Shown: piece after piece, positions 1,828 to 40,251 of the stretch
Layout: each line of letters opens with the position of its first letter
Numbering within the stretch: position 1 is the stretch's first letter
Assembly (NCBI GenBank): GCA_965233585.1
Contig: CBDDTI010000207.1
Coordinates: forward strand, 1-40,251
Origin: a bacterium
GTDB taxonomy: Bacteria > SAR324 > NAC60-12
DNA: 40,251 nt
Direction: 5' to 3'
Position numbers and translations under genes: made by a program
Notes under the pieces: generated by a model
Seen by the model: only the letters and a program-made list of their open reading frames with translations
Databases searched by the model: none
What the model was told of the DNA's origin: nothing

Positions 1828-1930
1828 AAAAAAATGACAACAGTGTTGAGTTCCAAAGTTTTTCCAATGTTTTTGAAGGTTTTTAAGGGAAAAGAGGTTC
1901 CAACTTACCGACGCCCCCCTCGGTAAGTTG
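1828..1930 (+). repeat. Left inverted repeat of outer element, ending in palindrome CAACTTACCGA-cgcccccc-TCGGTAAGTTG (1901-1930)
   Basis: Base-by-base match to the reverse complement of 40149-40251; similarity stops at the inner edge of the palindrome. Confidence 0.92.
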
Positions 1931-2032
1931 CCGGGGTGCCACCCTGTCAGGACTGGCGTCTCCAACGCTGTGGGCATTGAAGCTAAGGTTTCGGAGGAAA
2001 TGGGCAGATTTCCATCTAGAGAACCCACCAGG

Positions 2033-2115
2033 CCTGGTGGTCTTACCCCGGACTATCCTGGTATAGTTTGTACAGATTACCAGTCCTGGTGGTCTTACCC
2101 CGGACTACCCTGGTG
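2033..2115 (+). repeat. Direct repeat pair cctggtggtcttaccccggacta, 52 bp apart
   Basis: Two copies of the extended GGTCTTACC motif (cores at 2039 and 2091) just inside the left inverted repeat. Confidence 0.85.
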
Positions 2116-2549
2116 TACAAAACGGTCCTGTTATCTAGTTTTGTATAGATTTTAATTTTATGCGCTGAAGAACAAGAAGGCCGAACAAAAAAACAACAGC
2201 GCATTGGGGATAGTCATTGGGCAAGGGGGTTGGTTTTCTTTGGTTCGGAACAACATTTGACCATGTGGCATAGATGACACGGTTGTTTTTTTAAAACGTT
2301 ATTTGCACCGACATGGCTGAAACTGCGAGTGTTTCATGCGTGGTAGTTTGGGCTCGTTCATGCTTCATGTGTTTGACTTTGAGTTGAGAAAATAACAGTA
2401 GCATGGGCAGACATAAGCAAACACATACATGGACTGGAGCACCGTTTTAGTTTAGCACATACCATGTACCCTGAGCATTTCACTATTATAATGCCCGCTT
2501 ATGATAGTCGAAAATAACCTCCAGCACAGAATCCAGTGTTCGTCGCGCC

Positions 2550-3678
2550 ATGTCGTGGTGGTCGTCCTCCTGTTCCTGGTCCGAGAGCCCGTGGCGTGGC
2601 CAGGATTGGGATGATGGTTACAGTCGTCAACAGTGGGGCGAGGGCAGCGGGTCTTGGCAGTCCTGGTGGTCTTACTCCGGATGGGCCTCCGGATCCGCGG
2701 GTAGCGCCGGAAAAGGCAAAGGGAAGGAGGAGTCACAACCGAAGAGGCTTCGTCATGAGCAGGCCCCGACCATTGGATTTGACATAGAAAAGGAGGACGA
2801 AGAGTACGTGTATGCGTCTGTCCCTTGGGTCATGAGCGACTACAAGAACCAATGTTTGAGGCCAGTCATCGCGGAAATTGAAGAAATGGGTTGCGTTTTC
2901 AAGATGAAGGTCAGAGTGGCCCAGAAATGCTCCAGGGTGAGCATTAGAGGCAAAGAAGCAAGGAATGCTTGGAAATATTTCTTGGATAGCACGAGGAAAC
3001 TTTTGCCAGAGAAATTGCCTGAGTTTCCAAAAATGTCACATGTTCAAATTCGCCCATATGGTCAAAGACGACGACGACGTGAAAGACGAGGGGGGAACAG
3101 AAGTGAAGGCCGGCCGGGGCGGTGACTGAAGTTCTTATCACAGCGTTCGTAGTCAGTGCCCTGTCAAACTTGCATGTGTTCTGGGGATGCCAAATCTTGG
3201 CATAATGATTCATTTTTGTTTTTTTTTTTTCGCAGTTTGTGCATCTGATCCTTTTTTTTGGGTTATCGTTAAAACAAATACATCTGTATATCATGCATTC
3301 ATGTGTATATCATGTTTGTCACGTGGATTGTCTGCCTGCCAGGACGAACCCGATTGGGACGCAGATGATGACAAGGACGAAGACGAGGACTTGCCAGCGG
3401 CTTCGGGGCAGGCAGCTCCGGTCACCACACCCCGCCGGTCGCCGAAAACGTTCACAGGCAAAAGCAAGTGGCAAAAAAAAAGCGATGGCTGTGATGATGC
3501 ACTGGAGGCTGAAACAGAACCCAATTTAAGTGTGTCCACTGATAAGACCGGGTGCCTGCTGGTCACAGATCAGACAGGCAGAATCATCACAAGGCTCATG
3601 CCTGAAGCACAAAACGAGTCCATGGGCCAAGAAATGGAGGGGTCAAAAATGTATCGTTTGGCTCAAAAAATTGCAAAA
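2550..3678 (+). pseudogene. 5' part of the interrupted cargo gene: W/S/G-rich N-terminus, possible KH-like segment, acidic linker; probable GC-AG intron 3109-3342
   Basis: ORF 2550-3125 (MSWWSSS...IAEIEEMGCVFKMKV...RVSIRG). The exon from 3343 (DEPDWDADDD...MYRLAQKIAK) joins in frame to 30506 once the insert is removed. AAG|GC donor and CCAG|G acceptor; joining exon 1 needs a 1-nt frameshift near 3050-3060. Confidence 0.65.
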
Positions 3679-4410
3679 AACCTCTGTTCTTTGATTGTGA
3701 TAGTTTGGTTTTTGAAAATGATAGTTTCATTTTGGGTGAAACAATGCAGTTGTTTTTTGCTTTTCAATTTGGGGATGGCTTTCCAACATGTTTCTTTTCA
3801 TTTTCTAGGGATAAGTTTTCATGCTAAAATTGAAACCTGGAGAGGTGGGGGCAAGTCAGAACAAAAAGACATGCTGTAATTCAAACAACAAGTATCATGA
3901 TTACTGAACCAAACACACGCACATACACAAAGTTGTCATGCTTAAATTGAAACCTGAAGGGGTGGGGGCAGGTCAGAACAAAAAACATGCTGTAATTCAA
4001 ACAACAAGTATCATGATTATGAACCAAACACACGCACATACACAGACACACTGCCAATGACCATCAAGTATCATGAAAATATAAATATATACATACATGT
4101 ATTTATATATATACTTAATCAATGGTCATGCACATATGATACCAATATAGTGTCACCAAGAGTCATGCACATATGTCACCATCACAAATCATAATATACC
4201 ATCCAGTGTCCCCCAGTTGTCATCCACTTGTGATACCACCATGCACACATGTCATGAACATAAATATGAGACCATTAAATTGTACCTGCAGGTTTCCTGG
4301 ACAGGTGATGCCGTTGCAGCAGCCTTCAGCTGGGGATGGTGGGGATAACGTCCCTGAACAAGGGACTAGCCCTGAACAAGGGCATCATAACCCCTAAAAT
4401 AATGGGCTTC

Positions 4411-4610
4411 AATTCCAAGACTTGGCATTCCAGGCCTTGGCAATTGAATTAAGACATCAAATTCAATTCCAAGACTTGGCGTTCCACGCCTTGGCAATTG
4501 AATTAAGACATCAAATTCAATTCCAAGACTTGGCGTTCCAGGCCTTGGCAATTGAATTAAGACATCAACTTCAATTCCAAGACTTGGCATTCCAGGCCTT
4601 GGCAATTGAA
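4411..4610 (+). repeat. 54-bp tandem repeat, about 4 copies (mirror at ~29378-29580)
   Basis: aattccaagacttggc(a/g)ttcca(g/c)gccttggcaattgaatt at 4411, 4465, 4519, 4573. Confidence 0.9.
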
Positions 4611-6659
4611 TTCGTATCCGTTCCAAGAAAAGGGTTAAACAAAATCTGTCCCGTAGCTGGCAAATACATACATACACCTCCCTTTCATTTTCAAAGTTGT
4701 GAGAATTCATCAGGAATAATTCCAGTCTAGATTTTTTCATATTCTTATTTTCACAAATGAGTTGGATGACTATATGCATAGTTCCTTTTTTTGTCTGGTG
4801 CGTGGCATTTTTGAGGCTTGGTGTGATCTACAGGTGTTCAATGCATATACATGACTATACTCATACACTTCTAGTGGATTGCATGCTCCAACCATCAGGT
4901 TCCCAAATGTGGTTGTAGGAATGGAGCTGCATAGGAACCTAAATACCGACTGATTTGACATTAGGATTTCAAATGGCAGACCTTCAACCAAATTAAACAA
5001 AAACACACTGTTTTTGAAGACATGATTAGATATGAATAGTTGTGACTAGTGTAACGATGGAACAGTTTGAATTTGCTTACTATGGTCTTTGCACCAAAAG
5101 GTGTCGAACTTTAGCTGCTCTTGACAGAAAACACATTGTACCAACAGGGCACTGTTACTCTTCTAGATAAACCATACTCTTAGAGGGACATTCCATCATG
5201 CCTCCCTTGGGGATTTCCATTCAAGGTTCCAAATGCCCAAGAGGAACAGAATTGCTTGTTTGCTTCTCTTGGGCTTCAATTTCAATATGATGTTGTTATT
5301 GATGATGATTATTAAATGTGGAAGCTGAACATGAAATTCAGACTTGGTCATTTTCCAAGTCTGCATAATCTCTATGGTTCGGTCTCCCAGAAATAGTGAA
5401 TCTTAAATGCACTTCAAGACTTGGCCTCTCAAGTCTTGCACTGACAAACGTGATCACTGAGACTTTAAGGTTTTTCTCGATGTGATGCAAATGAGTTCTT
5501 CAAAAGTTCAAGGCTTGAATCCAAGTCCAACCACTCATGTTTGTCTCAATTGGCTACACTTCCCAGGTCTTTCACATATGGTTGATTCAGGGTAGTTACC
5601 ATTAACATGGTTCAGAACTTGGCTGTATCAGTATTACTTTTTTGTCCTTTCATGACCTGGTCTTTCAAGACATGAACACATTTTTCAAGACTTGGCATCC
5701 CAAGTTTTGAAACAAAAAGGTAAGAGTTCACCCTTAACTTGTCCAAATGCATTGCACCAAGTTCTGGATTTGATTGGACTTGGCATTCCAAGTCTGGAAC
5801 TCAACTTGACCCATCTTGTTAACTATTTGACCTTCCAAGTCTTCAAGCTCAAGACTTGGGTTTTTGTTGCAAGGTTTTTTGCCTTGGCTCACCAATGAAG
5901 TTAGTCTTTGCGACTTTTGAAAAATCATAGGTTTCAACACTTGCTACCGCCCCGAGCCTGAAAACTTGCAAACAAGCTGTTCTGTAGTTTGATACTTGTT
6001 ATGTTTCCTGTTGGGTGTCCAGAGTGGTAAAGATTGGTCTTGTGCTCACGACTTGGAACTCCAAGTCTGGAGCCCAAGAATGATATATTGAAGTGTTCGA
6101 AATGATGTTTTTCCACTTCCAATTTTTAACCCCTCCTAACATTTTACAACCATGTACTAAACTGTGTAACGAGCGGAAACTTTATACCTGTTTTTTTTCT
6201 GCCGTATGTGGGGCTGTGCCCGCATGATTCTTTACACATGATGCCATCTTAAAACTTGGCTTCTCAAATTTTGAAACCATTTGGTGTTGTATGCTTGCAC
6301 ATGCCTTTTACAAAAGACACAATGTGGAACTTCATGACATCATGCCATCTTCAAGACTTGGCTTCCCCAGTCTTGAAACTGTTTGCAGCTAGTTTTTGCT
6401 AACAATAGACTGTGGACATCCAAGGCATGAACACGATGGGTTGTTTTTCAAGACTTGGCATCCCAAGTTCTGAAACGTGACAATTTTTCAACTCATGCCC
6501 CTAACTTGACAACGGTACCAAGTGTAACACCCATCCAGATTTGGCAGTCCAAAGCGGTAGGGATGGGCATTGTGCAGCTTAAGAATGGTGCATTGCAAAA
6601 TTTGGCCTCAAAGTGTGAAAATGAGGTTCCTGAGAAAATGGTTTAGAAACTTGCCACTC

Positions 6660-8876
6660 TTGCCTTCCCAAGTCTTGAATCCTTTTGGGGCAAAGAATTT
6701 CAACATTAGACCCTTGCCACGAATTATGTCTTTCATGATTTGGTCTCCCAAGACATGAACACAAGTGAACATGATTGTCAAGACTTGACAGCCGCAGGTC
6801 TGAAATCTTACACCTTTTGTTTGAAGACTTGGCATGCCAAGTTTTGAAATGTTACATTTTTGCAACTCCATGTCCCCAAGTCTTGACAATGACTGCACTA
6901 TTCAAGACGTGGCTTTCCAAGTCTTCAAACTTGTCGGGGTAACGAATTTCAACATTAGACCCTTGCCGAGAATTATGTCTTTCATGACTTGGCCTTCCAA
7001 GACATGAACACAATTGGAAAAAGTTTTTCAAGACTTGGCAGCCACATTTCTGAAATCTAACACCTTGTGTTCAAGACTTGGCATGCCAAGCTTTGTTATG
7101 TTGTTACATTTTTTTTGCAACTCCATGTCCCCAAGCCTTGACAATGATTGCCCTATTCAAGATTTGGCTTTCCAAGTCTTGATTTTTTTTTGACGGTATA
7201 GAATTTCTTCAGTATAAGTAAGATTTACTGTATGTCTTTCATGACTTTGTCTTCCAAGACATGAACACAAGTGAAAATGATTGTCAAGACTTGGCAGCCA
7301 CAGGTCTGAAACCAAGTCTTTTTCTCTCAAGACTTGGTATCCCAAGTTTTGAACTGCTACATTTTTGCAACTCCATGTCCTCAAGTCTTGACAATGATTG
7401 CACTATTTGAGACTTGGCTTTCCAAGTCTTGAAACTTTTTGCTGTATAGACTTTCAACAGTATAACAAAGACTTATGTCTTTCATGACTTGGTCTTCCAA
7501 GACATGAACACAAGTGAAAATGATTGTCAAGACTTGGCAGCTGCAGGTCTGAAATCCTGCACCTTTTTTTCACGACTTGGCATGCCAAGTTTTTAAACGC
7601 TGCATTGTTGCAACTCCTTGTCCCCAAGTCTTGACAATGGTTGCACTATTCAAGACTTGGCTTTCCAAGTCTTCAAACTTTTCGGGGTAAAGAATTTGAA
7701 CATTAGACTCAAATAAGAACTTTCATGACTTGGTTTTCCAAGACGTGACCACAAGTGAACATGATTGTCAAGACTTGGCAGCAACAGGTCTGAAATCTTA
7801 CATTTTTCTTTCAAGACCTGGTTTGCCAAGTCTTGAAACGTTACGTTTTTTGGCAACTCCATGTCCCCAAGTCTTGACAATGATTGCCCTACTCAAGACT
7901 TGGCTTTCCAAGTCTTGATTTTTTGGCGATATAGAATTTCAACAGTATAAGTAAGATTTATGTCTTTCATGACTTTGTCTTCCAAGACATGAACCCAAGT
8001 GAAAATGATTGTCAAGACTTGGCAGCCACATGTCTGAAACCAAGTCTTGAACTGCGACATCTTTTTGCAACTCCATGTCCCGAAGTCTTGACAATGATTG
8101 CACTATTCAAGACTTGGCTTTCCAAGTCTTGAATCCTTTTGGGGCAAATAATTTCAACATTAGACCCTTGGCAAGAATTATGTCTTTCATGACTTGGCCT
8201 TCCAAGACGTGAACACAAGTGAACATGATTGTCAAGACTTGGCAGCCACCACAGTTCTGAAATCTTACATTTCTCTTGAGACTTGGCAATATCCCATGTC
8301 TTGACATGTTACATTTTTTGGCAACTCCATGCCCCCAAGTCTTGGCAATGATTGCACTAGATATTCAAGACTTGGCTTTCCAAGTCTTGAAACTTTTTGG
8401 GGCAAAGAATTTCAACATTTGACCCTTGCCAAGAATATGTCTTTCATGACTTGGTCTTCCAAGACGTGACCACAAGTGAACATGATTGTCAAGACTTGGC
8501 AGCCACAGGTCTGAAATCTTACATTTTTCTTTGCTACAATTTTGCAACTCCATGTCCTCAAGTCTTGACAAAGATTGCACTATTCAAGACTTGGCTTTCC
8601 AAGTCTTGAAACTTTTTGCTGTATAGACTTGCAGCAGTATAACAAAGGTTTATGTATTTCATGACTTGGTCTTCCAAGACATGAACACAAGTGAAAATAT
8701 TTGCCAAGACTTGGCTGCCACAGGTCTGAAATCTTACATAGTTCTTTTAAGACTTGGCATGCCAAGTTTTAAAATGTTACATGTTTGCAACTCAGTGTCC
8801 CCAGGTCTTGACAAATAACTGCACTATTCAAGACTTGGCTTTCCAAGTCTTGAAACTATTTGCAGGAAACAGTTTG
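6660..8876 (+). repeat. ~245-bp satellite, about 9 diverged units rich in CAAGACTTGG/CCAAGTCTTG
   Basis: Recurring unit ...gcaactccatgtccccaagtcttgacaatgattgcactattcaagacttggctttccaagtcttgaa... Confidence 0.92.
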
Positions 8877-10941
8877 ATAATGTTTGGCTTGCGCTTGTTG
8901 GTGCTTGTAGCCGCTGCTGCTGCTGCCCCTGATGATTCACCCTCAGCTCGGTATGCATTGCCCTCCTTGTTGAGAGCAGCATTGTGCTGCTGAAGCACCT
9001 TCATCCATTCATCCCGCACTTCTGGAATGGTGAGTTTCTCCTCCATCGCATCCAGGAAGGCGGCTCTGAGAGGAAGTTCATTCGATGCACTTGGAAATGT
9101 GCATGTGAAATCAGCAGAATTCAAACTGGGCATGATAAGATTTTCTGCGTAAGTCGACAATGGCTCCCAATTTGGAACGACTGTGATGCCTTCTGTGGCT
9201 AGCCTGAAGCCGCCTCTTCAGGGCGACACAAAGCCAATTCGCAACTTTCGCCGCATCGACCTTCCTGTTGGCGCCATTTGGATCACGAGTATTGGCCTCG
9301 GCCCAACAAGGCCGACACAAAGCATTGAAGGCCACTTTGTGTTGGAGGACAGCCGCATGATGGCTTCAGCCATGCTGTGGTCATAGGCAAAGGTGTCAAT
9401 GATGCAGCAGCCCACTGAGCCATCAAGGCCAAGACCAAGCAAAAGGCCCTGTAGCCATGCAGATGGCAAAGAAAAGCCTGACAGCCATTGCTTTCGCCTG
9501 CTGGCTCTGGACAAATCCATGACTCCTGCAGAAGTCTTGAAGTCACGCCGAGGGTCGACGTAATTCCTCACTGAATTCATCTGCACCGTGATGTCCTTGG
9601 AGGATGGAGTCAACTGTCGTTTCCAAGCTGCAGACTTGGCAAACACACTGACATAATCACCTTCTTCCTGCAAGTCACTAATGATTGCACATGAAAAACT
9701 TGTGTACACCAGGTCGGTATGACTGTGGTGGATAACTTGAATGGTCAAACATCACAGTGACTTCACGCAGCACGAGTCGGTGCTCTGGCATCTTCAAAAG
9801 TTCCATCATCTTGGCAGCTGTATTCGCAATTTCACCCTCATCACATGCGTTGCCATATCCACCAACAGTCGGGCATGCAAGGACCAAGCATGTGTTTGCT
9901 GGTGATGCTGCGATCAAACCAGCATACTCCTTCACAGCTGTCACTGTGTTCTTCCAGCCATCATACCCCAAGGTTGAAAAATTGAGCCAGTAGATCTTGA
10001 GAAACTTGTTCTCAGCCAGACCCTTCTCAGCTGCAAAGCGATGGATTGATGCCTCATAGAATGTCGTTCCATGGCCACATTCTGAAAGATCTCGGACTGG
10101 GAAGTTGCACTCTTGCATGGCATTGATTGCAGCACGTTGAGCCTCACGCTGTTTCTCAAGCATTTCTGCACGTAGACCCAGACCGACCTTCTGAAAGTTT
10201 TCAACGCCAAGCTGTTACTCCTTGAACTTGGTCTCTTCTTTTTGGAGCTTTGCAACGGCCTTGACCATCTCAGCTTTCTGTAGATCCAAGTTGGCTTTCT
10301 GCAGGTCCAAGTTGGGCCCCAGGATCCCCTCTGCAACACCATAGTCAGCCAAGAATCGGAAGTCGCCAACTTGCAGGGCTGGGGACTGGATCCGGATCTC
10401 CTCCATCATCTCAGTGTCCAGGTAACTGCGGACAAACGTCAACTCACAAGCTTCCAGCTGTGCATCTGTGAGCACCTTCTCGAATGCCGGGCGAAAGTGT
10501 GCAAACAAGCAGCACATTTCCCTGAGTCTCCGGAATTAGTAAATTTAGGTCGAGCTAAATTTACGTAAATGGGAGCAGTTTAGGTAAAACATTTACTAAT
10601 TTATTTTTCCACCTAAATAAAAAATCAAATTTAGGTTACGACCTAAATTAATTTACTGATCGACCTGAATTAATTTACTAATCGACCTAAATTTTTGGAT
10701 GTTGCATTTTTACTTAAAACTAGTTAGTTTTGTTAGCATTTTGCATGTGGGGTTGTTACAGAATCATCAAATTTTGCTGTGATTTTGCATGCGTTGCCCT
10801 AAGTCTGCAAACCTAGTAACTTTACTAATTTAGTAAACTTACTAATCGGGAGGAGACTGCGATTCTTTTTTGGCCAAGTCATCCAATATTAGTAGATTGT
10901 GTGAACAATGAAAAATGCACCAAAGGTGCATCAAACATGCC

Positions 10942-11010
10942 TGTTGTTGTTGTTGTTGCTGTTGCTGTTGTTGTTGTGGTCGTCGTCGTCGTCGTTGTTG
11001 TTGTTGTTGT
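10942..11010 (+). repeat. (GTT/GCT/GTC)n microsatellite, longer than its counterpart in copy 2 (18753-18780)
   Basis: Direct reading; explains the poly-Thr ORF 10879-11106. Confidence 0.9.
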
Positions 11011-12749
11011 TCTATCTATATAGTTGCCATGCATCTGATACATGGGGAAGAATCTGCTAACAACATTTTGCAAATTTAGTATATGCTGTTTGTTGAGAAT
11101 GTTCACAAGTAAGCCTCTGTCAAAAACACATGATTTTTGCTAAACTGTATTACGTGTAAGCTAGATTGATGCGATAAAGAAGGCCAGAATCTTAGCAAGT
11201 GACCACTCAAGTTAAAAAACCAACTATTTGGGGGAACCTACATTGGGATTTACATGAGGTATCTGTATTATATCAAGTGTGATTTTTCTAGTGAAATTTA
11301 CATAAGATAATTACATTGGAATTTACACGAGTGACTGCGGAGCATTCCAGTTTGGGATGAAAAACATGTAGATTGCAATCACATTAAAACAAATCATATA
11401 TCAAAGCAGGAAGAACTAAACCATAGCTATGAAAGCTATGCTTTTTGATAAAGAACAAATATAGGGGGGTATTGTTCGTTTTGTTTTTCAGCCTGGTTTC
11501 TTGGTTTGTGTGGTTTTTCTGATTTGGTCTCTTGGCTTTAGTGGCTTTTGGTTTTTATGACTCATAAAGTGTGCTGCAATTGCTTTTGCGGTTTTTGTGT
11601 TTTTTCGGATTTTGTAGTTTTTGTAGCTGTTGTGATTTTTATGGTGTGTGGCTCTTGTGGCTCTTGGTTTCTTCGCCCTTTGGGGTTGTTTTGGTTCGTT
11701 GGCTTTTGCGGTTTCTTGGTTTTTGTGCTTTTCCCTCTCTGAATTTATATGCATGTGTTTGCGAAAGGGATTAACACATGTTTTCAACAAGTGTCCTAAC
11801 TTGCCCTTTTCCAAGTTCTGAAAACAGTATTTCAGGACACTTGTTGAAATTTATTGTCCAACTATTTCTACTTGATTTGTGTTTCACAACAAATAATCTG
11901 TGGGGAAAAAGGGGTGCTCAGTTCTTCATTTGAACTTACATGGGACCAATAGGAAAACCAAAACAAATGAACGGTATTTCAGAAGAGATTCAATTTCACA
12001 TTGCCTTCATTTGGGTTTACTTGAGCTAGCATTCAGTTTACATGGCATGAGTGTTTGCACAGTGGACTCTATTTATTTGAGACTGCTTTTAGGGACCCTG
12101 CATTCACTTAACTTTACTTCAGACTGCGCTGGTGGCTGCACTTGGACTTTATACTTGAGAACAATTACAATGAGTTTGCTTTTGAAAACAACTCCAATGA
12201 ACTTTACCCAAGAGGAAATCCAGTGAACTTTACTTGGGAACAACTCCAATGAACTTTACATATCTGAACAAAAAGAACTTTACCTGAGAACCCTTTTTAA
12301 GACTGCTCAAGATGATATTGGGGTCACGTCCAGTTAACTTGGTTTGAAACCATTTCCGTTGAACTTTTGGTCAATCCTATCTTACAGAAACAGTTTTCTT
12401 TTTAGATTCAACACGCCACCTGAATCTTCATGAGATGCCTCATCTCATCATCAAATGCATTCAGCCTGTCATCTTGTCTACATGTTTCTTTTGGAATTCA
12501 ATGTCATTACTTGTGAAAAACATTAGAACTATACTATACAAGGTTGCTTGCGACTTTCATTCTTAAGACTCATGTATTCCACCGCAGTTCAAATTGCAAA
12601 AACATATGAAAACTATTTGGAGTTATCTTGAATACAGGTTTTGATGTATTTTTATATTTACGTTATGGTTTCACGTATAGACTCTTGTTTTTTTTTGTGG
12701 GGGTCACAACACATGGTTCTTGTACACCAGGCCTTCAGGAAATCCCTTT

Positions 12750-13250
12750 TGAATTTCTTATGAATTTTTTGTGACATTTCATGATCTTATTTTGCATTTT
12801 CAAGAAATCTTTATGCATTTCTTATGCTTTTCTTATGCAGTTCTTATGCATTTCTTATGCATTTCTTATGCAATTCTTTTGCATTTCTTATGCAATTCTT
12901 TTGCATTTCTTATGCAATTCTTTTGCAATTCTTATGCATTTCTTATGCAGTTCTTATGCAGTTTTAAAAACTTCATACACTTTTGCCAAAACTGCATACA
13001 CTTTTGCCCTATGAAGTTGTAAAAACTGCATAAGAATTGCATAAGAAATGCATAAGAAATGCGTAAGAAATTCATAAGAAATGCATAAGACATGCATAAG
13101 AAATTCATAAGAAATTCCTTTAAACAAATCAGAAATGCATAAAAACTGCAAACAAAAATGCAAAAGAAGTAAAAGGAATTCAGAAGAATTTCAATAGACA
13201 TACAAAAGGAATGCATCAGAATTTCAGAAGAAATTCACAAGAAAATATTG
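12750..13250. repeat. Head-to-head array of an 11-bp unit (ttcttatgcat / atgcataagaa) forming a central quasi-palindrome; counterpart at ~20520-20990
   Basis: T-rich units 12810-12962, then reverse-complement units 13026-13115, around a ~30-bp centre at 12978-13009. Confidence 0.88.
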
Positions 13251-23196: not shown

Positions 23197-23315
23197 CACC
23201 TTGGCAGACCAGAGTTGTCACGCAAAGAAACACAATGTAGTTATTTTGAATTTATGCTCCTTAAACTCTGATTCTGTTTGGGGATGACAGAGAACCACAC
23301 TGCATCATGGTACAA

Positions 23316-28200: not shown

Positions 28201-30501
28201 GCAATGCATTTGGACAAGTTAAGGGTGAACTCTTACCTTTTTGTTTCAAAACTTGGGATGCCAAGTCTTGAAAAAATATGTTCATGTATTGAAAGACCAA
28301 GTCATGAAAGGACAAAAAAGTAATACTGATAAAGCCAAGTTCTGAACGATGATAATGGTAACTGCCATGAATCAATCATATTTGAAAGACCTGGGAGGCG
28401 AAGCCAATTGAGACAAACATGAGTGGTTGGACTTGGATTCAAGGCTTGAACTTTTGAAGAACTCATTTGCATCACATCGAGAACAACCTTAAAAGTCTCA
28501 GTGATCATGCTTGTCAGTGCAAGACTTGCGAGGCCAAGTCTTGAAGTGCATTTAAGATTCACTATTGTGCCAAAGCAATTTCTGGGAGACCAAGCCCAAA
28601 TAGATTTTGCAGACTTGGAAAATGACCAAGTCTGAATTTCATTTTCAACTTCCACATTTAAAAACCATCATCAAGAACAACATCATATTGAAATTGAAGC
28701 CCAAGAGAAACAAACAACCAATCATGTTCATCTTGGACATTTGGAACCTTGAACGGAAATCACCAAGAGAGGCATGATGGAATGTCCCTCCAAGAGTATG
28801 GTTTACCTAGAAGAGTAACAGTGCCCTGTTGGTACAATGTGTTTTCTGTCAAGAGCAGCTAAAGTTCGACACCTTTTGGCGCAAAGACCATAGTAAGCAA
28901 ATTCAAACAGTTCCATTGTTACACTAGTCACAACTATGCATATCTAATCATGCCTTCAAATCCATGAGTGAAACCGTGTGTTTTTGTTTAATTTGGTTGA
29001 AGGTCTGCCATTTGAAATCCTAATGTCAAATCAGTCGGTATTTAGGTTCCTATGCAGCTCCATTCCTACAACCACATTTGGGAACCTGATGGTTGGAGCA
29101 TGCAATCCACTAGAAGTGTATGAGTATAGTCATGTATATGCATTGAACACTTGTAGATCACACCAAGCCCCAAAAATGCCACGCACCAGACAAAAAAAAA
29201 CTATGCATATAGTCATCCAACTCTTTTGTGAAAATAAGAATATGAAAAAAATCACCTTCTAGATTGTAGTTATTCCTGATGAACTCTCACAACTTTGAAA
29301 ATGAAAGGGAGGTGTATGTATGTACTTGCCAGCTACGAGACAGATTTTTGTTTAACCCTTTTCTTGGAACGGATACGAATTCAATTGCCAAGGCCTGGAA
29401 TGCCAAGTCTTGGAATTGAAGTTGATGTCTTAATTCAATTGCCAAGGCCTGGAACGCCAAGTCTTGGAATTGAAGTTGATGTCTTAATTCAATTGCCAAG
29501 GCCTGGAACGCCAAGTCTTGGAGTTGAATTTTATGTAATTCAATTGCCAAGGCCTGGAATGCCAAGTCTTGGAATTGAAGCCCATTATTTCAGGGGTTAT
29601 GATGCCCTTGTTCAGGGCTAGTCCCTTGTTCAGGGACGTTATACCCACCATCCCCAGCTGAAGGCTGCTGCAACGGCATCACCTGTCCAGGAAACCTGCA
29701 GGTACAAATTAATGGTATCACATATATGTTCATGACTTGTGTGCATGGTGGTATCACAAGTGGGTGACAACTCGGGGACACTGGATGGTATTTTATGATT
29801 TTATGACTCTTGGTGACATTATATTGGTATCATATGTGCATGACCCTTGATTAAATATATATATATATATATTTATGTTCATGATGCTTGATGGTCATTG
29901 GCAGTCTGTGTGTGTATGTTTGTGTTTGGTTCAGTAATCATGAAACTTGTTGTTTGAATTACAACATGTTTTTTGTTCTGACCTGCCCCCCCTCCAGGTT
30001 AATTTAAGCATGAAAACTGTGTGTATGTGTGTGTGTTTGGTTCAGCAATCATGATTCTTGTTTTTTGAATTACAGCATGTTTTTTGTTCTGAACTGCCCC
30101 CACCCCTCCAGGTTTCAATTTAAGCATGACTACGGTGTGTATGTGTTTTGTTTGGTTCAATAATCATGATATTTGTTGCTTGAATTACAGCATGTTTTTT
30201 TGTTCTGAACTGCCCCCACCCCTCCAGGTTTCAATTTAAGCATGACTACTGTGTGTATGTGTTTTGTTTGGTTCTGTGATCATGATACTTGTTGTTGGAA
30301 TTACAGCATGTCTTTTTGGTTCTGACCTGCCCCCCCCCTCCAGGTTTCAATTTTAGCATGAAAACTTATCCCTAGAAAATGAAAAGAAACATGTTGGAAA
30401 ACCATCCCAAAATGGAAAAACAAAAAAATACTGCATTTTTTCAGCCAAAATGAAACTATCATTTTCAAAAACCAAACTATCACAATCAAAGAACAGAGGT
30501 T
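25201..30501 (-). repeat. Right arm of foldback element: ~243-bp satellite (25201-27220), semi-unique middle, 54-bp repeats, four ~120-bp repeats (29900-30360)
   Basis: Reverse complement of 3679-8876, with scattered substitutions and different repeat copy numbers. Confidence 0.92.
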
Positions 30502-30505
30502 AAAA

Positions 30506-32554
30506 GAAGCAATTGAGAAATGCGGTCTCTCCTCTGGACCGGAGCTCATGCTGAAGTCTCACGTCTCGATGTTGAAGAATTCTTCACGAGAGGACCTCAG
30601 CACGATGTTGACCTTCTGCACGTGCTGCTTTGGACGAGGGTGGCAACTAAGGATTTCCCTGCCAATCAACGTGGCCATCATGGAAAAGTATGAGATGACG
30701 ACGCGGTTTTGCATCAGCCTTTTCCGGCCAACGGAAGACCAATTATACAATGTTAGTGTTGGTCTTACCACCTTTCCATTGTCGAAGGAGTTGGTGCAGG
30801 AGGTGGAGAGGGATTTTCAAGAAACCAAAAAATGGATCTTGGAAAACTGCCAAGAAGAACTCAGATCTGTCAAGTTGGTCTGCAGCGTGCACAGGAGGCA
30901 GTTCTTCCACAGCTCCGTGTGCAAAAACACGTGCCATAAATTGGCCTTGTTGGAGGCTTGGCGCAGAGGCCGGGAGTCAGAAGGCGACGAAATTAGTGAA
31001 GATCTGGCGCCTCCACCGATAGCTCGGTTTGACGCTTTGTGGGCATTGAAGCAAAGGATCCCGCCCAGCTACATGCTCCGGGATGAATTCAAAGACAAGA
31101 AACACATCCTTTGCAACTTGGATGCTGACAACGTCTTGTCTGCAGATTTTGCCGCGCAAATTGATAGTCATTTTGGCAAAACCACCGGTCCTGGTGGTCT
31201 TACCCCGGGCTCTGGTAATTATGGAAACGCTCCTGTGTTCGGTGGCCGTTGCACTGGCGGAGACGACCTCGGATGCTGTGGCCGTGTCTTGATCAATGAC
31301 CGAGGGTTCCTTGAGTTGCAAGGATACGACGAATCATTTCATCCCACGGGTTTTCAAGATATTGATTTGTGGACAAGGACCAAGACCAAAGCAGGGCAAG
31401 CGCCAAAAATGAAGTTCTTTGCTGGATGGTCTGTGCCGAATTGCTCGGACAACGCCTTCAAGGCAGTAGCTATGGAAAAGAACAGGCTCACCGGCTGCAA
31501 CCTCAGGTGGGGACAGCAAGATACTGAAAATCAGGCTGATGCAGCCAGAAAACTTGCTGAGGGGAAGTGGTGGCGCAACAGCAGTGATGCAACAATTTCT
31601 TGCAGAGACATGTGGGAGTTGATGCTGAGCTTGGGAAATGCAGACCCGGAGGGCAAAACCCTGCTGCTGACAGCCAGAAAGCCTGAGCAGGATGATGGTC
31701 TTACCTCTACTGCGTTGAAACCACCGCCGCCGCCTCCAAAGGCAGCCCCGTCCGAAGCAGCCTCAGTTTCTCAGCAGCCGATGCCTCCCAGGCCTGCTCG
31801 ACCGGCACCTGCAAGCAAATATGGTAAAAAAAAGGAAATCGAGTCCAAGCTTCCTCCCTGCTTTGTGAGGGTGATCGCATGTGGAGCAGGCAACCTCGGC
31901 AAGGTACTCAAAAATGCCTGTCGCGTCAGAAACTTGCCAAGTCGGGTTTGGCAAGCAACCTTGGACTTGAGACATCAGTGCGACCAATTCGAAGCCGTGG
32001 AAGAGGAGTGCCTCAAAATGTGCCTGGACCACGTGGATGGCCTAATGATGGGCAGCCCAGGGCAGAGCAGTCACAGCATCATCTTCTGTGATTGCAGGGA
32101 CAAGGGCCTGCAAGGTTGGGATGACCCGGAAGTCATGGATGGGTCAGTGAAATACCACGTAGGAACATTCCCGGTGAACCTGAAGAACTTTGCGCGAGGC
32201 GAGGTATTCAAACGTGAGCTGCACAGGGTTCGACGGTACATCTTGTCCCGGTTTGCGTTGGACCCCAATGCTTCTCCAGGGGTGACAGTGGTTGCTTATT
32301 GCCGTGGAGGCAACCACCGCAGTGTAGCTTTCGCTTACCTGCTTCAACATGTCCTGAGTCAGCAGACACTGGTCACCTGCGCATCGAATGATGTGATTTG
32401 CTTGACCTAGTTGGCTGGGCACTGGTCGGATCGAAAATGTGGACGATGCAATTTTTGTCGCCACGAGAGGCTGCCTCCCAGAGAGGCAGCAATGGTTCAA
32501 GACGCATTCGGCTGCGCGCTTAGCGTGTGGCGCGAAGCGCCATTACACTTATGA
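30506..32554 (+). pseudogene. 3' part of cargo gene: GT-A fold glycosyltransferase (GT2/GT7C-like), Pro-rich linker, RapZ C-terminal-like domain, Cys-rich tail after an in-frame TAG (32408-32410)
   Basis: LTFCTCCFGR...FHSSVCKN...ILCNLDADN (DxD)...GCCGR...LQGYDESFHPTGFQDIDLWTR match GT-A/GT7C motifs. DCR...DP...HVG...VAYCRGGNHRSVAFAYLL resembles the RapZ-C CTGGxHRSV motif. The frame continues past TAG as LAGHWSDRKCGRCNFCRH... to TGA 32552-32554. Confidence 0.8.
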
Positions 32555-33102: not shown

Positions 33103-33869
33103 ATGCCGAAACTCAATATTGACCAAGGCCTTCATCTTCTGTCGCCACGATCCTTGGAAAAACATTTTGGCCATTGCAAGAAAAGAAAATGTTCTTTGTG
33201 TTTCTGGGCGCAGAAGGGCCCCGAGTGTCAAAAAACAACGTTGTTTCCTCCGGGCAGTCAAAAAAAAGACCCTGGTTGGCATGCGCCCGTATGCAGACTT
33301 CAGCTGACAAGAAATGGAAAGTTCGTTGGGGTTGTGTGCTTTGCAATCATTTCCGAAATTCAGAAAAATATCAGTATCGCCCGATGGTCTTACCTCGACG
33401 ACAGCAGAAAAATCAAGCAAGCAGACAAAAAAGAGTCTGCCGTCCATCTCATGGGGTTCTTTTCAAATTCCAGTGATGTTGTTTAAAAGAAGGAAGACGC
33501 AAGGTGTGCAGCAACATGCAAAAACCAGATGTCATCAACGAGCGTTGATGCATTGGATTGATCAAGCGCCTTCAGCATCAAAATCATCTCAATGCGAGTC
33601 AGAGTCACAGGTAGGACCACCAAAAGAACAGTGGGACAAAATTTTGAAGGGACTGCGCACGGGGAAAAGTGCGCACTGACAAAACGGCCTGGATTGCCAT
33701 GGAGACCTGCAGACGTACGAGCTGCAGCTGCCAAAGCGGACGGAAACTAAGGCTTCTTCAAGAGCTTCAAAGTGATGCTCTTGAAAATTTTAATTTGAAA
33801 GAGGTTTTGGCGCATACGTCTGCGTTACCACCAGCTGCCATAATTAAATCTGAAATTAATGCTATTTGA
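33103..33869 (+). pseudogene. Frameshifted gene with TTF-type (hAT-associated) zinc-finger-like motif; no catalytic domain seen
   Basis: Across three frames: H...CKKRKCSLC; RPWL...WGCVLC; WGSFQI...QHAKTRCHQRAL. The first shift falls in an A-run near 33260. Confidence 0.55.
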
Positions 33870-33942: not shown

Positions 33943-34458
33943 AAAGTTCAGTCAACATGGTAACTACAACAAAAAAAATCGAAAATTGAGCGACGTTAAT
34001 TCATATGCCCAACTTTATGGCTCCCTTACGCATTGCCAGACCGGTCCGGGGCCGCGAAAGAGGGTAAAAGTTCAGTCAACATGGTAACTACAACAAAAAA
34101 AATCGAAAATTGAGCGACGTTAATTCATATGCCCAACTTTATGGCTCCCTTACGCATTGCCAGACCGGTCCGGGGCCGCGAAAGAGGGTAAAAGTTCAGT
34201 CAACATGGTAACTACAACAAAAAAAAATCGAAAATTGAGCGACGTTAATTCATATGCCCAACTTTATGGCTCCCTTAGGCATTGCCAGACCGGTCCGAGG
34301 GCGCGAAAGGGAGCCATAAAAACGCGTAAGGGAGCCATAAGTTGCAGCGCCGCTGCTACTTATGGCTCCCTTACGCATTTTTATGGCTCCCTTACGCATT
34401 GCCAGACGGGTCCGAGGGCGCGAAAGGGAGCCATAAATTTATGGCTCCCTTACGCATT
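33943..34458 (+). repeat. ~124-bp tandem repeat x3, followed by direct and inverted copies of tatggctcccttacgc
   Basis: Units start at 33943, 34067 and 34191; the inverted form aagggagccataa occurs at ~34307, 34328 and 34424. Confidence 0.9.
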
Positions 34459-34629
34459 GAGCGTTGGTACCGCTGTACCCTAGTCACATGTTTTCGTCCC
34501 GGTCCCGGTGAGTTAGGTGATTTCTGTTTCTGGTATCTAACTATGGGCAGTAGTAGGCGCGCAGTATTTGAGAGGGCAGTGGCACGCGCAGCCTTTTAGA
34601 AGCACCTTAGGTCATCTTGAACTTGGGCG

Positions 34630-36230
34630 GTGCCAAAAAAATCTGAGCCAAACAGCGTAAGGAAAAAACATGCACCTTATTTAAAAAGACAGTGGCCAAA
34701 AAAAATCGGAGCAAAACAGTTGAAGAAAAAATGGCACCCTAAAAACGTAAGATAAAAAACCAGCAATCTATAAATGACTGTTGCCAAAAAAATCGGAGCA
34801 AAACAGTTGAAAAACATGGCACCTTATAAAAATGACTGGCGAAAAAAATCTGAGCCAACCTAAGGATAAACAAACACACCTTATAAAAATGACTGCTGCG
34901 AAAAAAATCGGAGCAAAACAGTTGAACAAAAAATTCACCTTATAAAAATGACTGCGGCCCAAAAAATCTGAGCCAAACAGCGTAGGATAAAAAAAATGCG
35001 CCTTAAAAAAATGACTTGCCAAAAAAATCGGAGCAAAGCAGTTGAAAAAAATGGCACCTTATGAAAATGACTGTGCCAAAAAAAATCTGAACCAAACAGC
35101 GTAGGATAAAAAAATGCGCCTTATAAAAATGACTGTTGCCAACAAAAATCGGAGCAAATCAGTTGCAAAAAATGGCACCTTATACAAATGACTGTGCCCA
35201 AAAAAATTCTGAACCAAACAGCGTAGGATCAAAAAAAATGTGCCTTATAAAAATGTATGTTGCCAAAAAAAATCGGAGCAAAACAGTTGACAATAAAAAT
35301 TGGCACCTTATAAAAATGGTTGCGGCGAAAAAAATCTGAGCCAAACAGTGTAAGATAAAAAAATGCGCCTTATAAAAATGACTGTGGCCAAAAAAATCGG
35401 AGCAAAACAGTTGAAAAAAAAGGGACCTTATAAAAATGAAAGCGGCCAAAAAAAAATTAACCAAACAGTGTAGGACAAATAAAAAATGTGCCTTATAAAA
35501 ATGACTGTTGCCAAAAAAATCGGAGCAAAACAGTTGAAAAAAATTGCACCTTATAAAAATGACTGGGGCCAAAAAAATCTGAACCAAACAGTGTACGATA
35601 AAAAAAAATAAAAATCCGTATAAAAATGACTGTTGCCAAAAAAAATCGGAGCAAATCAGTTGCAAAAAATGGCAACTTATAAAAATGACTGTGCCCAAAA
35701 AAATCTGAACCAAACAGCATAGGTAAAAAAAAAATGCGCCTTATAAAAATGACAGTGGCCAAAAAAATCGGAACCAAACAGTTGAAGATAAAAAGTGGCA
35801 CCTTTGAAAAATGACTGTGGCGAAAAACATCTGAGCCAAACAGTGTAATTAAGATTAAAAAAATGCGCCTTAAAAAAATGATTGTTGCCAAAAAATTGGA
35901 GCAAAGCAGTTGAACAAAATGCGCCTTATAAAAATGACTGCGGCGAAAAAATCGGAGCAAAACAGTGTAAGATTAAAAATGCGCCTTATAAAAATGACTG
36001 TGGCCAAAAAAATCGGAGCAAAACAGTGGAAAAAAATGGGACCTTTTATAAGCGGCCAAAAAAAAATCAACCGAACAGTGTAGGATAACAAAAGGTGCGT
36101 TATAAAAATGACTGTTTCCCAAACAATCGGAGCAAAACAGTTGAAAAAAAATGGTACCTAAAAAAAAAACTGTGGCCAAAACAATCTGAACCAAACAGCG
36201 TAGGATTAAAAAAATGTGTCTTATAAATGT
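34630..36230 (+). repeat. A-rich minisatellite, ~58-60-bp monomers alternating as a ~118-bp dimer
   Basis: ccttataaaaatgactg...ccaaaaaaaatc followed alternately by ggagcaaaacagttg and tga(a/g)ccaaacag(c/t)gta. Confidence 0.92.
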
Positions 36231-36263: not shown

Positions 36264-36350
36264 ATGCCGCCGAAGAAAGGTGAGAAGGAAACTCTTCCGG
36301 ATGGCGTTCCTGCCAATTGGAGTGCTTGGCGACTGTCACGAGATGAACAG
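36264..36350 (+). CDS. Possible short first exon (MPPKKGEKETLPDGVPANWSAWRLSRDEQ) of an unresolved gene
   Basis: Coding-like GC-richer stretch ending in CAG|GA, a donor class known in dinoflagellates; downstream exons not identified. Confidence 0.25.
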
Positions 36351-37030: not shown

Positions 37031-37633
37031 ATGTCTGCGTACTCAGCATCGGGTCAGTCTCAAATGCCGGCATTGACGATGGCACATGATGATGACGCAA
37101 GCTCGAACAGAAGCTGGAGCCTGGTGGGTTCCAAACACGGCGCCACAGTGATCCCGGGGGACAGTTCCAATGTTGAAGTGAAGTATCATCAGCAGCAATG
37201 GGACCGATCAGAATATCCTGGTGGTCTTACCCCGGTTGGTCATCCTAAAGACTTCACCCCGGGATTCATGGTGTGCTACACCACGCGCGGCGGCTCGGAG
37301 AACGACTGCCACTGTCCAAATTTGATTGTGGAAATCACGGGCCTTCCACTTTCAGACCCGGACATGACGTTCCTCGTGGACACTCATAAGATTGAGAGGG
37401 TGGAGGATATCAAATCCATTGTGCAATGGTGGGTGAGTGAAGGGTGCGTGGACCACGGGCTGGAAGCCACCGAGTGGATACCCAAATCGCATTGGGCACT
37501 CCACAGCATTGAGCGGGCAACCCCGCACAACATGCCCACAAAATACCTGAAGAAGACGGACATGCCGCTCAAGTTTTCCTGGCACACCTGGAGCCCATCC
37601 TACAAGAAAAGTCACAGCAGCGTCGTGGTCTGA
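37031..37633 (+). CDS. Intact intronless 200-aa ORF of unknown function
   Basis: ATG-to-stop ORF with coding-like composition and a globular-looking C-terminal half; contains the GGTCTTACC motif (GGLTP). Confidence 0.65.
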   Translation: MSAYSASGQSQMPALTMAHDDDASSNRSWSLVGSKHGATVIPGDSSNVEVKYHQQQWDRSEYPGGLTPVGHPKDFTPGFMVCYTTRGGSENDCHCPNLIVEITGLPLSDPDMTFLVDTHKIERVEDIKSIVQWWVSEGCVDHGLEATEWIPKSHWALHSIERATPHNMPTKYLKKTDMPLKFSWHTWSPSYKKSHSSVVV

Positions 37634-38671
37634 CCCGCCCAGGATTAAATGGCCATAGCAGCAGGGCTGTGGTCTTACCCACCCTGGCCCTGGAACGTCT
37701 CACTTTTGTGGTTGGTGAAAAAAAGTCCAAAGTGAAATAGTTTTATGTGCAACTTTTTAAAAAAATGCCAGCCTATCAAATGCAATTTTTGTTTTTGTTT
37801 ATTGGGACAGAACCACCAACCCAAAAACCACGCATCTTACGTCCGGTCTGACCCCAATAGACCCTTTTTAAGATTGCGATGCTGGACTTGTCAGTCCTCT
37901 TCCTGCGCAGCGATGGCAAAAATGTGATTACCTGACTCTGGGCGGAACGGACTGTTGCAATTCCAAACCCCCGTTGAACCGTTACTTGGGGATGATATGA
38001 CAATGAAGGTGTTGATGGTCAAAAAATAAAACAATGTTCAAATGTCATCTGCACGATGAAAGTGGTTACCGATGATCATCATAGTTGTTGCCATCCTGGA
38101 TCACTGACCCTTTAGTTCATACATAGGACATTCCCTTTCCCGGGGGCATGAGACCTCATACTCACACAAGGGGCCAGAAGCCACAAACTTGTGGAGGGGC
38201 CTCATAACCTTCTGAACAACCGGGAAGTTATATAAGATAATTGTAGAATGGATAAGCAGGGGCCTCAGACCACAAAACTTACGAGGGGCTCTGCTGAACA
38301 GAACCAACTAACTCGCAAGGGGCCTTTTAGCCAACAAACAACCGGTTTTTCAGTAAGTTCATTCAGCATGTGAAGGTTCAATGTGTGAGAAGGATGATGA
38401 TAATAATCATTAACCAAGATTCCCTTGAAGCCGTTTTTGTTTGGCCTGTCGCCGCTGATGTTTTCTGAAAGCCTCAGTGGGTGTTATATGAAATCAAATG
38501 AGTCAAACGTGTAATTGAAAGAATGCATTGAGCATGTCGTATGGTTCGTACGATATCAGAAACACGAAACATGGTGCGAAAAATACATCAAGAAAACGAA
38601 AAAAACAAGAACAATTACAACAATCATAGTCATCATCATGGTTCCAAAACAAGTTTCAGTAAATCCTAGTG

Positions 38672-40066
38672 CTACTCAGCAACATTACGGCTCCTGAATG
38701 CATGTTGCTTTGGCTGGCACTGGCTTTCTTGGTCTTTGACGCTACCCGACCGAGCAGATCCAGCTTCCGCGCTTGAGGTTGGTCTTGGCTCAGGACCGGG
38801 GGCCAGGGAAGACGTGTCTGCTCTTTCAAAATTTGTGTTTTCTTCCCCTTTTGGTGGTATGTTTGATGTGCAGTTGGGTTCACTTTCTGTGCCTTTTGCA
38901 GGGGTAAGACCACCATGTTGAGATTTTTCTTTTGAGTTTTTTTCTGTTTTTTCCTCCTTCTTACTTCTTTTGAAAGGACTTGGGGCGGACCCAAACTCTA
39001 GAGCTTCCTTCACTTCGTCGTCATGTGCATGACAATAGTGCTTCCGCCAAGTTCTGGCATCTGCGCGTTGCTGCACTTCTAAAATTGTGGTTTCAGTTGG
39101 CCTCTGCATTGATGGTTTGTCTTTGTTAAAAAGCAGTAGTGCCGAGCCTGTATGCCTCGTGGCACCGTGAACTGTCACACGGCTACCCCTATATTGGTTG
39201 CTTGGGTTCCATCTTCGTTGATGTGTCAATGCCCACATGACATCCCGGATACGGGTCACTTCATCAGACACCGATTGTCGGGCCATGTTCGGCCGGCATT
39301 TTTTTCTGCTATTGCTTTGAAACAGAAATGTTTCTGATGTAACGTCCAACATAAAATCGTCTTTGCGCAGAGGCTTAACATTTTCAAAAACTTTGGGATG
39401 CGAAGATTTAAATGGTTCCAAAGTCATGGGGCACTCCCACTTGAGACCCGTTTCGATTAATTCCTTCAGACCCTCAATGCTTGACTCTGAAATTCTAGCG
39501 CTCAGGCTTTCAGCACCCAATTTCCCTTGCCCCCGAAGTTTTTTATCCTCTTGTCTTTTTTGAAATAACACATGCGGAGCATCGTGGTCTTCTCCTCCGG
39601 TCAGGCGTATGTCTGTGCCTCATAACAGTAGCGTCTCAGATATGCGTCGAGATGTTACCAAAGCTAGCCATAATACTACGCAGTAGATTGGCCCTGCAAA
39701 GAATTGGGCGACCGCAAAAAACAAGTGTAACTGCTCTCTAGGAATGAACACATGTTGCTTTGCAGTTTTACTGTGTTTGTGTCCTTGGTTCCACGGCTTT
39801 GCAGCGGCTCTTTCCTTTTCATGTTTGTCCTGGTCCTGAGTCGGCAACGCCTTTTGTTTTGGGCGCGTTGTTTTTTCTTTGTTGCTTCGGGCTGTCTTCT
39901 GGGTAACACCGCAAGACGACGACGATTTTCGTTTCATTACCCTGTCCGAAACCTTTCTTTTTTGGTGTCTTGCTTTTTCTATGTTTTCCGGGTAAGACCG
40001 CGAAAAAACGACGATTTTCCCTTCATTATACTGTCCGTGCCCGAACTGTTTCTCGATTTGGCGCAT
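38672..40066 (-). pseudogene. Tyrosine recombinase (phage-integrase family catalytic domain), about 464 codons with one in-frame TGA at 39620-39622
   Basis: ORFs 39620-40114 and 38672-39571 are in the same frame. Box I-like LWLALVTSRRISETLLL*GTDI, candidate Lys in GQGKLG, FLF patch, box II-like VTVHGATRHT, and nucleophile-like WRKHY. Basic low-complexity N-terminus. Confidence 0.8.
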
Positions 40067-40079
40067 GAGTTGCCCGAAT

Positions 40080-40100
40080 TTTGATCCAAAATGACTGCAG
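40080..40100 (-). other. Relic dinoflagellate spliced-leader-like sequence upstream of the recombinase ATG
   Basis: Minus strand CTGCAGTCATTTTGGATCAAA versus DinoSL CCGTAGCCATTTTGGCTCAAG, 16/21 identical, ending 14 nt before ATG 40066. Confidence 0.55.
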
Positions 40101-40148
40101 AAAGCCAGTTGCAAGGGGCAGATTTCGAACTTACCAATCGACCTGGGC

Positions 40149-40251
40149 CAACTTACCGAAGGGGGCGTCGGTAAGTTGGAACCTCTTTTCCCTTAAAAAC
40201 CTTCAAAAACATTGGAAAAACTTTGGAACTCAACACTGTTGTAATTTTTTT
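40149..40251 (-). repeat. Right inverted repeat of outer element, with palindrome CCAACTTACCGA-agggggcg-TCGGTAAGTTGG (40148-40179); runs off the window end
   Basis: Reverse complement of 1828-1930. Confidence 0.92.

Follow-up and report, generated by a model that had tools for sequence, protein, structure and literature searches.

The 40,251-bp contig CBDDTI010000207.1, analysed over its full length and here called the window, carries a disrupted gene for a tyrosine recombinase (YR) that lies just inside one of two inverted copies of a repeat, the leader. As read from the sequence, what is new here is that the inner ends of the repeat resemble lox/FRT palindromes and appear tied to a YR family of coral symbionts that is invisible to Pfam. 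A new YR family with a DNA site of its own is likely, and the explanation that we rank first, at a little short of even confidence, is that the window contains a defunct copy of a DNA element built on a YR, from a family not found described. The window is treated as nuclear DNA of a Cladocopium-like dinoflagellate (Symbiodiniaceae), because its 620-amino-acid (aa) open reading frame (ORF) at 30548-32410 is 96% identical to P0136, an "unnamed protein product [Cladocopium goreaui]", and because the organism-named relatives of the YR (3 of 39) are each from Symbiodinium. Long ORFs are few in the window and satellites many, the G+C content is about 42%, and scans with Rfam and for tRNAs gave no match.

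The YR frame runs on the minus strand from a first ATG at 40066, 83 nt inside the repeat, and reads inward to a stop codon at 38672-38674, in agreement with the initial annotation, which had placed a YR gene about 80 bp inside one end and reading inward; the frame is interrupted by a TGA codon (Table 1). In the alignment column of this codon 14 of 17 aligned relatives have Arg and the other three Lys, and the simplest origin of the nonsense codon would be a CGA-to-TGA change at a CpG. The family consists of stand-alone proteins of about 400 aa, with 39 matches in a protein database clustered at 90%; at 50% identity it has 106 representatives, of which 43 reach E<=1e-30. Eight pattern matches in 185,579 prokaryote genomes yielded no confirmed relative. 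Conserved blocks are SRRISE (Arg), GKLG (Lys), HGATRHT (His and Arg) and HY (Tyr), and R156/R157, K198, H316, R320, H359 and Y360 are invariant in alignment A1 and at least 90% conserved in alignment A2. The His and Arg are spaced H-x3-R here, as against the usual H-x2-R, and these residues would probably occupy the catalytic positions. The near-identical relatives P0040, P0047 and P0061 are frameshifted by lesions that differ from one another, which together with the nonsense codon in the window is as expected for a family of dying copies.

For the fold, an intact relative that is 97% identical to the window YR, P0001, was modelled with AlphaFold (AF2) from the 47 sequences of alignment A2, giving a predicted local distance difference test (pLDDT) score of 76, with 200 residues at >=90. 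In a Foldseek search of the PDB the model had five matches at E<=0.001, and the ten best were all tyrosine recombinases, headed by IntI (2a3v, E=2.3e-5) and followed by Tn1549 Int and XerA; Cre, XerH and HP1 came further down the list. Against BFVD there were seven matches at E<=0.001, of which the named ones were all phage integrases, and in language-model features (Atlas) the nearest clusters were integrases, with a score of 0.97. The integrase fold, on which the initial annotation had made its proposal depend, is present in the model, and by modelled fold, language-model features and conserved columns the product of 38672-40066 is a true tyrosine recombinase. A literature search, with Repbase, Dfam and supplements outside its scope, did not find a description of the family, and its YR hits for Symbiodiniaceae were DIRS-type or general papers.

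Two further features of the YR region are recorded here. The basic N-terminal region contains a direct duplication (39893-39948 and 39982-40037, 80% identity over 56 bp), each copy of which has a motif of the GLT type described below (RGLTRKT and CGVTQKT). Ahead of the gene, at 40080-40106 of the minus strand, there is a CAG acceptor and, after it, a stretch similar to the 3' portion of the dinoflagellate spliced leader, with two mismatches in 14, possibly the relic of a leader left by an ancient retroposition. The 21-mer of the spliced leader has no match in the window at up to three mismatches, and its 14-mer core has eight at up to three mismatches against 9.5 expected, so that the stretch alone is not significant.

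When 1828-1930 is aligned with the reverse complement of 40149-40251, the two leader copies agree in 101 of 103 positions (BLAST E=1e-50), bearing out the earlier description of an inverted repeat of at least 103 bp about 38 kb apart. The match extends to the final base of the window, so that its length of 103 bp is a lower bound and the outer edge lies beyond view. The inner edge, in turn, is sharp (1930/1931 and 40149/40148), and further in the two sides are unrelated. The distance between the copies is 38.3 kb, or 11.6 kb without a 26.8-kb insert and one copy of its AAAA duplication. Within the window there are two copies only, the best further match of the repeat being 20 nt long, and a search of prokaryote genomes with the repeat gave no match. 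A search with a hidden Markov model (HMM) for a YR remnant near the left leader found none, and the window holds one YR locus only.

Each copy closes, on its inner side, with a palindrome of 28 bp, and the similarity between the copies ends one base past it. The left palindrome appears as a DNA hairpin in a computed fold, and the 8-mers of the arms, AACTTACC and GGTAAGTT, are found in the window only at the two palindromes and at one extra half-site. YR sites typically have two inverted arms of 11-13 bp and a spacer of 6-8 bp (excerpt of PMC3212892), a range to which the 10-bp arms here fall slightly short. In architecture the arrangement is that of FLP/FRT or Cre/lox, with inverted arms, an 8-bp spacer and an adjoining recombinase gene, and the palindrome is a candidate lox/FRT-type core site of the adjoining YR.

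The connection between site and recombinase comes from related proteins. The frame that enters the YR ORF is open from within the repeat and reads GKRGSNLPTPPSVSW across the palindrome. Upstream of other YRs the corresponding peptide is NLPTPPSVS in P0038, which is a read-through model from the P0014 lineage (YR 50% identical), and NLPTTPSVN in P0021, P0035 and P0072 (YRs 52-57% identical). The pattern NLPT[TP]PSV is thus present in four of the 17 family proteins that reach at least 75 aa upstream of the FIPREQL box, and the other 13 have a start Met downstream of the expected site or different N-termini. The likeness in P0038 extends further, to some of the leader ahead of the palindrome (FQ.F) and to the third half-site (IGKF). 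The peptides of the arms are kept, whereas that of the spacer varies (TPP vs TTP), and the palindrome-derived peptide occurs upstream of at least two diverged YR lineages, or three if the P0021 group is separate. Since the leader and half-site stretches are non-coding in the window, where a stop lies between them, while their peptides are conserved in relatives, conservation at the level of the DNA is indicated. The presence of leader peptides upstream of diverged YR genes links the repeat to the recombinase and argues that it is not a random dispersed repeat. The possibility raised in the initial annotation, that the copies are independent members of a dispersed repeat family unrelated to YR genes, thereby loses ground, as both the palindromic end and part of the leader recur. 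On these peptide comparisons, the repeat is a constant companion of the YR gene.

For two inverted leaders 11.6 kb apart (net), with an inward-reading YR at one end, the simplest reading is that they bound a single unit, which is proposed here tentatively. The recombinase would bind the arms of the palindrome and exchange strands in the 8-bp spacer, and the leaders would be the ends of one recombination unit that carries a gene for a glycosyltransferase-like (GT-like) protein with a RapZ-C-like region and a 200-aa ORF. With the spacers CGCCCCCC and CGCCCCCT facing each other, the simple reaction would be inversion of the segment, as in the FLP/FRT system of the 2-micron plasmid. To be excised as a circle and re-inserted, the segment would require a strand exchange in which spacer heterology is tolerated, of the kind carried out by Tn916-type integrases. 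The segment may be mobile or invertible. Both larger enclosed genes are decaying, the YR by its TGA and the GT-like gene by a TAG and the 26.8-kb insert, and in another genome a contig of 277,987 bases is reported for both the YR relative P0014 and the GT-like relative P0144; the shared decay, the differing YR frameshifts and this contig weakly favour one unit. A Pfam scan (E<=0.01) of the 103 stop-to-stop ORFs of at least 85 aa found reverse transcriptase (RT), DDE transposase, polB, Rep, packaging ATPase or capsid in none of them, a scope in which divergent capsids might escape; that RT, DNA polymerase, capsid and DDE genes are not visible had been noted before and holds for these ORFs.

Several points weigh against the reading as a YR-based unit bounded by the leaders. 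The PF00589 check that the initial annotation had proposed came out negative: neither the split YR nor its read-through form (stop as X) matches a Pfam family, even at E<=10, and among the relatives PF00589 is reached in one of 47 (P0052), with 18.4 bits against a gathering cut-off of 27.1. PDB searches by sequence, with the single protein and with a profile, gave no match. Conservation of the site in relatives is deduced from peptides and not from DNA, and the arms of the palindrome equal the 5' splice-site consensus GGTAAGT and its complement, so that a role of the arms at the RNA level is possible. As the sites are inverted, a simple YR predicts inversion and no excision. There is a single pair of repeats, and the outer edges and any target duplication lie past the end of view at 40251. 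The GT-like gene is spliced and has relatives of 27-38% identity in Effrenium (Effrenium voratum) and Symbiodinium, like an ordinary host gene family. The 106 representatives of the YR, set against 13 GT-like matches in searches that were not like for like, far outnumber them, so that the GT-like gene is no constant partner. The linkage of P0014 and P0144 elsewhere is possible and amounts to a single coincidence among the 13 GT-like matches.

Part of this evidence fits a smaller element, an explanation that is somewhat doubtful and ranks close behind that of one unit. The mobile unit would then be small and Crypton-like, consisting of a leader and the YR, the left leader would be a solo or rearranged copy that stems from a separate insertion or from site-specific recombination at a leader, and the GT-like gene and the 200-aa ORF would be ordinary neighbours, decaying paralogues. 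The introns of the GT-like gene, its deep relatives across genera and the numerical excess of YR relatives are in keeping with this, as are the absence of a YR remnant by the left leader and the end of similarity exactly at the palindrome, which is expected if exchange occurs there. By contrast, two facing leaders 11.6 kb apart (net) are improbable by chance unless insertions cluster, the two enclosed genes decay together, and the 277,987-base contig with P0014 and P0144 also speaks for a larger unit.

The splice-site likeness leads to a second alternative, which is distinctly unlikely, that the repeat is the shared 5' leader of two convergent genes, comprising a promoter and a non-coding first exon with a GGTAAGT donor, possibly hidden in a hairpin, and has no role in recombination. 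Both copies do lie upstream of a gene and point at it, 620 nt before the ATG at 2550 and 83 nt before the ATG at 40066, their similarity ends 8-9 nt past G/GTAAGT (the slash marking the splice point), and a second GGTAAGT and a pyrimidine-rich CAG acceptor are present on the YR side. However, a donor alone leaves the conservation of the complementary arm in diverged lineages unexplained, and dinoflagellate mRNAs are trans-spliced, so that an upstream cis donor would be unexpected. Furthermore, the adjoining gene is predicted to encode just the type of enzyme that uses inverted arms of 10-13 bp with a spacer of 6-8 bp (excerpt of PMC3212892).

Less likely still, the 103 bp might be the tip of a larger inverted segmental duplication or an assembly artefact of the contig end. 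That the match runs to the final base of the window, in a region rich in duplications (1-1427 equals 7146-8567 at 99.65%), would agree with such an origin, but the leader's link to YR genes extends to other lineages, and the likeness of the P0038 peptide seems to fade near the A-run that opens the repeat, a weak point in the same direction. That the segment goes back to an integrated virus, polinton-like or another DNA virus, with terminal inverted repeats (TIRs) and a YR integrase is most improbable: the dinoflagellate Oxyrrhis does have endogenised polinton-like viruses with YR and TIRs (excerpt of PMC12721341), but none of the 103 ORFs has a capsid, ATPase, polB or other viral Pfam family, the BFVD matches are phage integrases only, with no YR of a eukaryotic virus near the top, and the main enclosed gene is spliced.

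Table 1. Positions of the leaders, recombinase gene, candidate sites and other features in the window.
Feature	Position	Strand	Remarks
Left leader, repeat of at least 103 bp	1828..1930	+	101/103 vs right copy; no YR remnant adjoining
Right leader	40149..40251	-	Cut off by the window end
Palindrome AACTTACCGA-CGCCCCCC-TCGGTAAGTT (10-8-10), inner end of left repeat	1902..1929	+	Candidate recombinase core site
Palindrome AACTTACCGA-CGCCCCCT-TCGGTAAGTT, inner end of right repeat	40150..40177	-	
Third half-site GGTAAGTT, between palindrome and YR start	40128..40135	-	Matching peptide IGKF kept in P0038
YR pseudogene	38672..40066	-	In-frame TGA 39620-39622
GT-like/RapZ-C gene, 5' exons to insertion point	2550..3678	+	tblastn of P0136; family HMM
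GT-like/RapZ-C gene, remainder	30506..32553	+	GT-like region, RapZ-C-like CRGGNHRSV region, Cys-rich tail
TIR element in exon of GT-like gene, separate from YR unit	3679..30501		AAAA duplication 3675-3678 and 30502-30505
200-aa ORF, genus-restricted	37031..37633	+	5 matches, all 85-99% identical; no Pfam match
121-aa ORF	33314..33679	+	In-frame DGLTS motif; no Pfam match
Tandem arrays	33943..36227		124-bp x3; about 120/248-bp A-rich array

The GT-like gene is assembled from the ORFs 2550-3125, 3187-3678, 30506-32407 and 32411-32553, which are exons or pieces of one spliced gene. By tblastn, residues 1-168 of P0136 (821 aa) correspond to 2550-3053 and residues 188-294 to 3361-3681, after which the match continues from 30443, and the HMM of the GT-like family (alignment A4) covers 2508-3122, 3130-3876, 30383-32407 and 32411-32551. 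Among the family members PF22740 (RapZ_C, best E=7e-11) and PF10111 (Glyco_tranf_2_2) are each found in nine of 14, and the domain call of a glycosyltransferase/RapZ-C fusion was a fair one. The gene is disrupted twice, by the 26.8-kb insert and by an in-frame TAG at 32408-32410, past which homology to P0137 continues in frame to 32536. With regard to the cargo genes listed in the initial annotation, the fusion stands as one spliced gene, while the separate Zn-finger gene does not, being the tail of that same gene (32411-32553); the 200-aa orphan is kept as an ORF, with close relatives only.

The insert in this gene has perfect ends (AACCTCTG.../...CAGAGGTT) and arms of about 3 kb that are 92% identical. 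P0136 reads ...AQKIAK/EAIEKCG... across the empty insertion site (slash), and because TIRs, the AAAA duplication and an empty site are all present, the insert is a TIR transposon in its own right, with a target duplication of 4 bp; a 26.8-kb insert that splits a net segment of 11.6 kb had been proposed before and is real. It may have been mobile recently, and no transposase was recognised in it by Pfam. An intron was considered for the same stretch and rejected, since none of five possible junction placements has GT/GC/GA...AG ends. A 243-bp satellite (6645-8875 and 25190-27238) lies in mirrored orientation inside both arms and is rich in palindromes of its own, e.g. CAAGACTTGG-N4-CCAAGTCTTG. 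The interior contains a tandem duplication of about 7.8 kb (10520-15437 vs 18344-23196, 93-96% identity), with a 139-bp array of 7.5 units (98% identity) at 17184-18343 between the two copies. The match of 1-1427, outside the insert, to 7146-8567 suggests a recent segmental duplication or an assembly problem.

Two other places in the window have open frames of note. Outside the left repeat, a 124-aa open frame at 1432-1806 on the plus strand, which has no Pfam family, stops 22 bp before the repeat; for the ORF 1432-1803 Atlas has an identical sequence with a poor model (pLDDT 0.35), and the other matches are at chance level. The stretch 33100-33480 is open simultaneously in three plus frames and one minus frame, with overlapping ORFs at 33103-33486, 33174-33476, 33314-33679 and 32839-33447 and no Pfam family.

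A short motif recurs through the segment. The 8-mer GGTCTTAC, mostly GGTCTTACC and in its long form CCTGGTGGTCTTACCCCGG, is present in 14 copies in the window, at 2039, 2091, 2668, 30761, 31196, 31697, 32564, 32592, 33386, 36561, 37223 and 37671 on the plus strand and at 38911 and 39999 on the minus strand. All of them fall within 1828-3678 and 30502-40251, in each case on the sense strand of the ORF at that place, and there are none in the 26.8-kb insert or in 1-1827. The 13-mer was observed six times at up to one mismatch, against 0.02 expected. In long ORFs the motif is read in frame as G-L-T (GGLTP or DGLTS), and since the copies are identical in their DNA, codon bias is ruled out. In distant relatives, too, GLT peptides are found, at positions that are not homologous (28 matches in 11 of 148 proteins), including RDGLTSQV three times in tandem in P0145. 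The reverse complement of the motif is splice-donor-like, and CTTACC is common to the motif and the palindrome arm. A literature search on the motif or its DNA found no relevant paper among the 20 matches listed of 409. It is conceivable, and on balance unlikely, that Symbiodiniaceae chromosomes harbour a family of YR elements of the 2-micron or lox-like kind, with long inverted leaders that each close in a core site and a recombinase at one end, that these flip or move multi-gene segments, including spliced genes of cellular type, and that the GLT motif GGTCTTACC, dispersed over all three gene families of the segment and their distant relatives, is a trace of such recombination.

Several known systems bear comparison. 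Cryptons are YR-only elements of fungi, oomycetes, diatoms and animals, and the window resembles them in that a stand-alone YR is the only recognisable mobility protein, RT and DDE transposase not having been found in the 103 ORFs, and in the proposed action via a short recombination site. They are defined by the absence of TIRs and by terminal direct repeats of 4-6 bp (excerpts of PMC3212892 and PMC13465315), whereas the repeat here is at least 103 bp long and in inverted copies. In addition, a GCR1_C or DUF3504 domain is present in some Crypton groups, and neither was found here by Pfam. In the 2-micron plasmid the YR gene adjoins one of a pair of long inverted repeats, and each repeat has a core site with an 8-bp spacer. 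The likeness is one of layout, in the YR next to one of two inverted repeats, the inverted arms, the 8-bp spacer and the predicted inversion, while the plasmid is an extrachromosomal yeast circle and the window a chromosomal dinoflagellate locus of an apparently multi-copy, decaying family. Long inverted terminal repeats are also a feature of Tec3. The Tec3 and Tec1/Tec2 elements of Euplotes crassus are YR-encoding elements of an alveolate, as here, and with the FLP system of the yeast 2-micron plasmid they are precedents for a YR with inverted repeats (excerpt of PMC3212892). Compared by description, the Tec elements differ in their ciliate germline setting and in the DDE transposase that Tec1 and Tec2 also carry. 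Starships, some of which have TIRs (excerpt of PMC13465315), likewise have a recombinase at one end that reads inward with unrelated genes behind it, the cargo here being putative, but their captain is a DUF3435 YR, whereas the YR here has no Pfam family, and they are fungal and far larger. DIRS elements share a YR and inverted terminal repeats (excerpt of PMC13465315) and are known from the same algal family, the YR of the SymbioDIRS of Symbiodinium being labelled PF00589 in a figure legend (excerpt of PMC5890265). DIRS, Ngaro and VIPER need RT/RNase H, however, which was not found here, and the window YR is missed by Pfam. Polintons and polinton-like viruses differ by their capsid, packaging ATPase, polB and replication module, not found here in searches with Pfam only. 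The nearest analogies would be FLP/FRT within inverted repeats and the ciliate Tec elements.

Given Tec, FLP, DIRS, Starships with TIRs and polinton-like viruses as precedents, and inverted sites that predict inversion, the wording of the initial annotation, that the element fits none of the known types and forms a new class, was overstated; a new class of cargo-carrying element rests on a single decayed copy and is unproven. Dinoflagellates have very large genomes full of repeats, in which DNA transposons are poorly catalogued. The YR family, with its putative site, would bring to the genomes of coral symbionts a further class of mobile or invertible DNA and would help explain gene duplication and decay there. 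If the leaders bound one unit, it would be a rare non-fungal eukaryotic recombinase element that carries genes of cellular type, and should the recombinase and the 28-bp site function together, they would constitute a native site-specific recombination system in organisms for which genetic tools are scarce.

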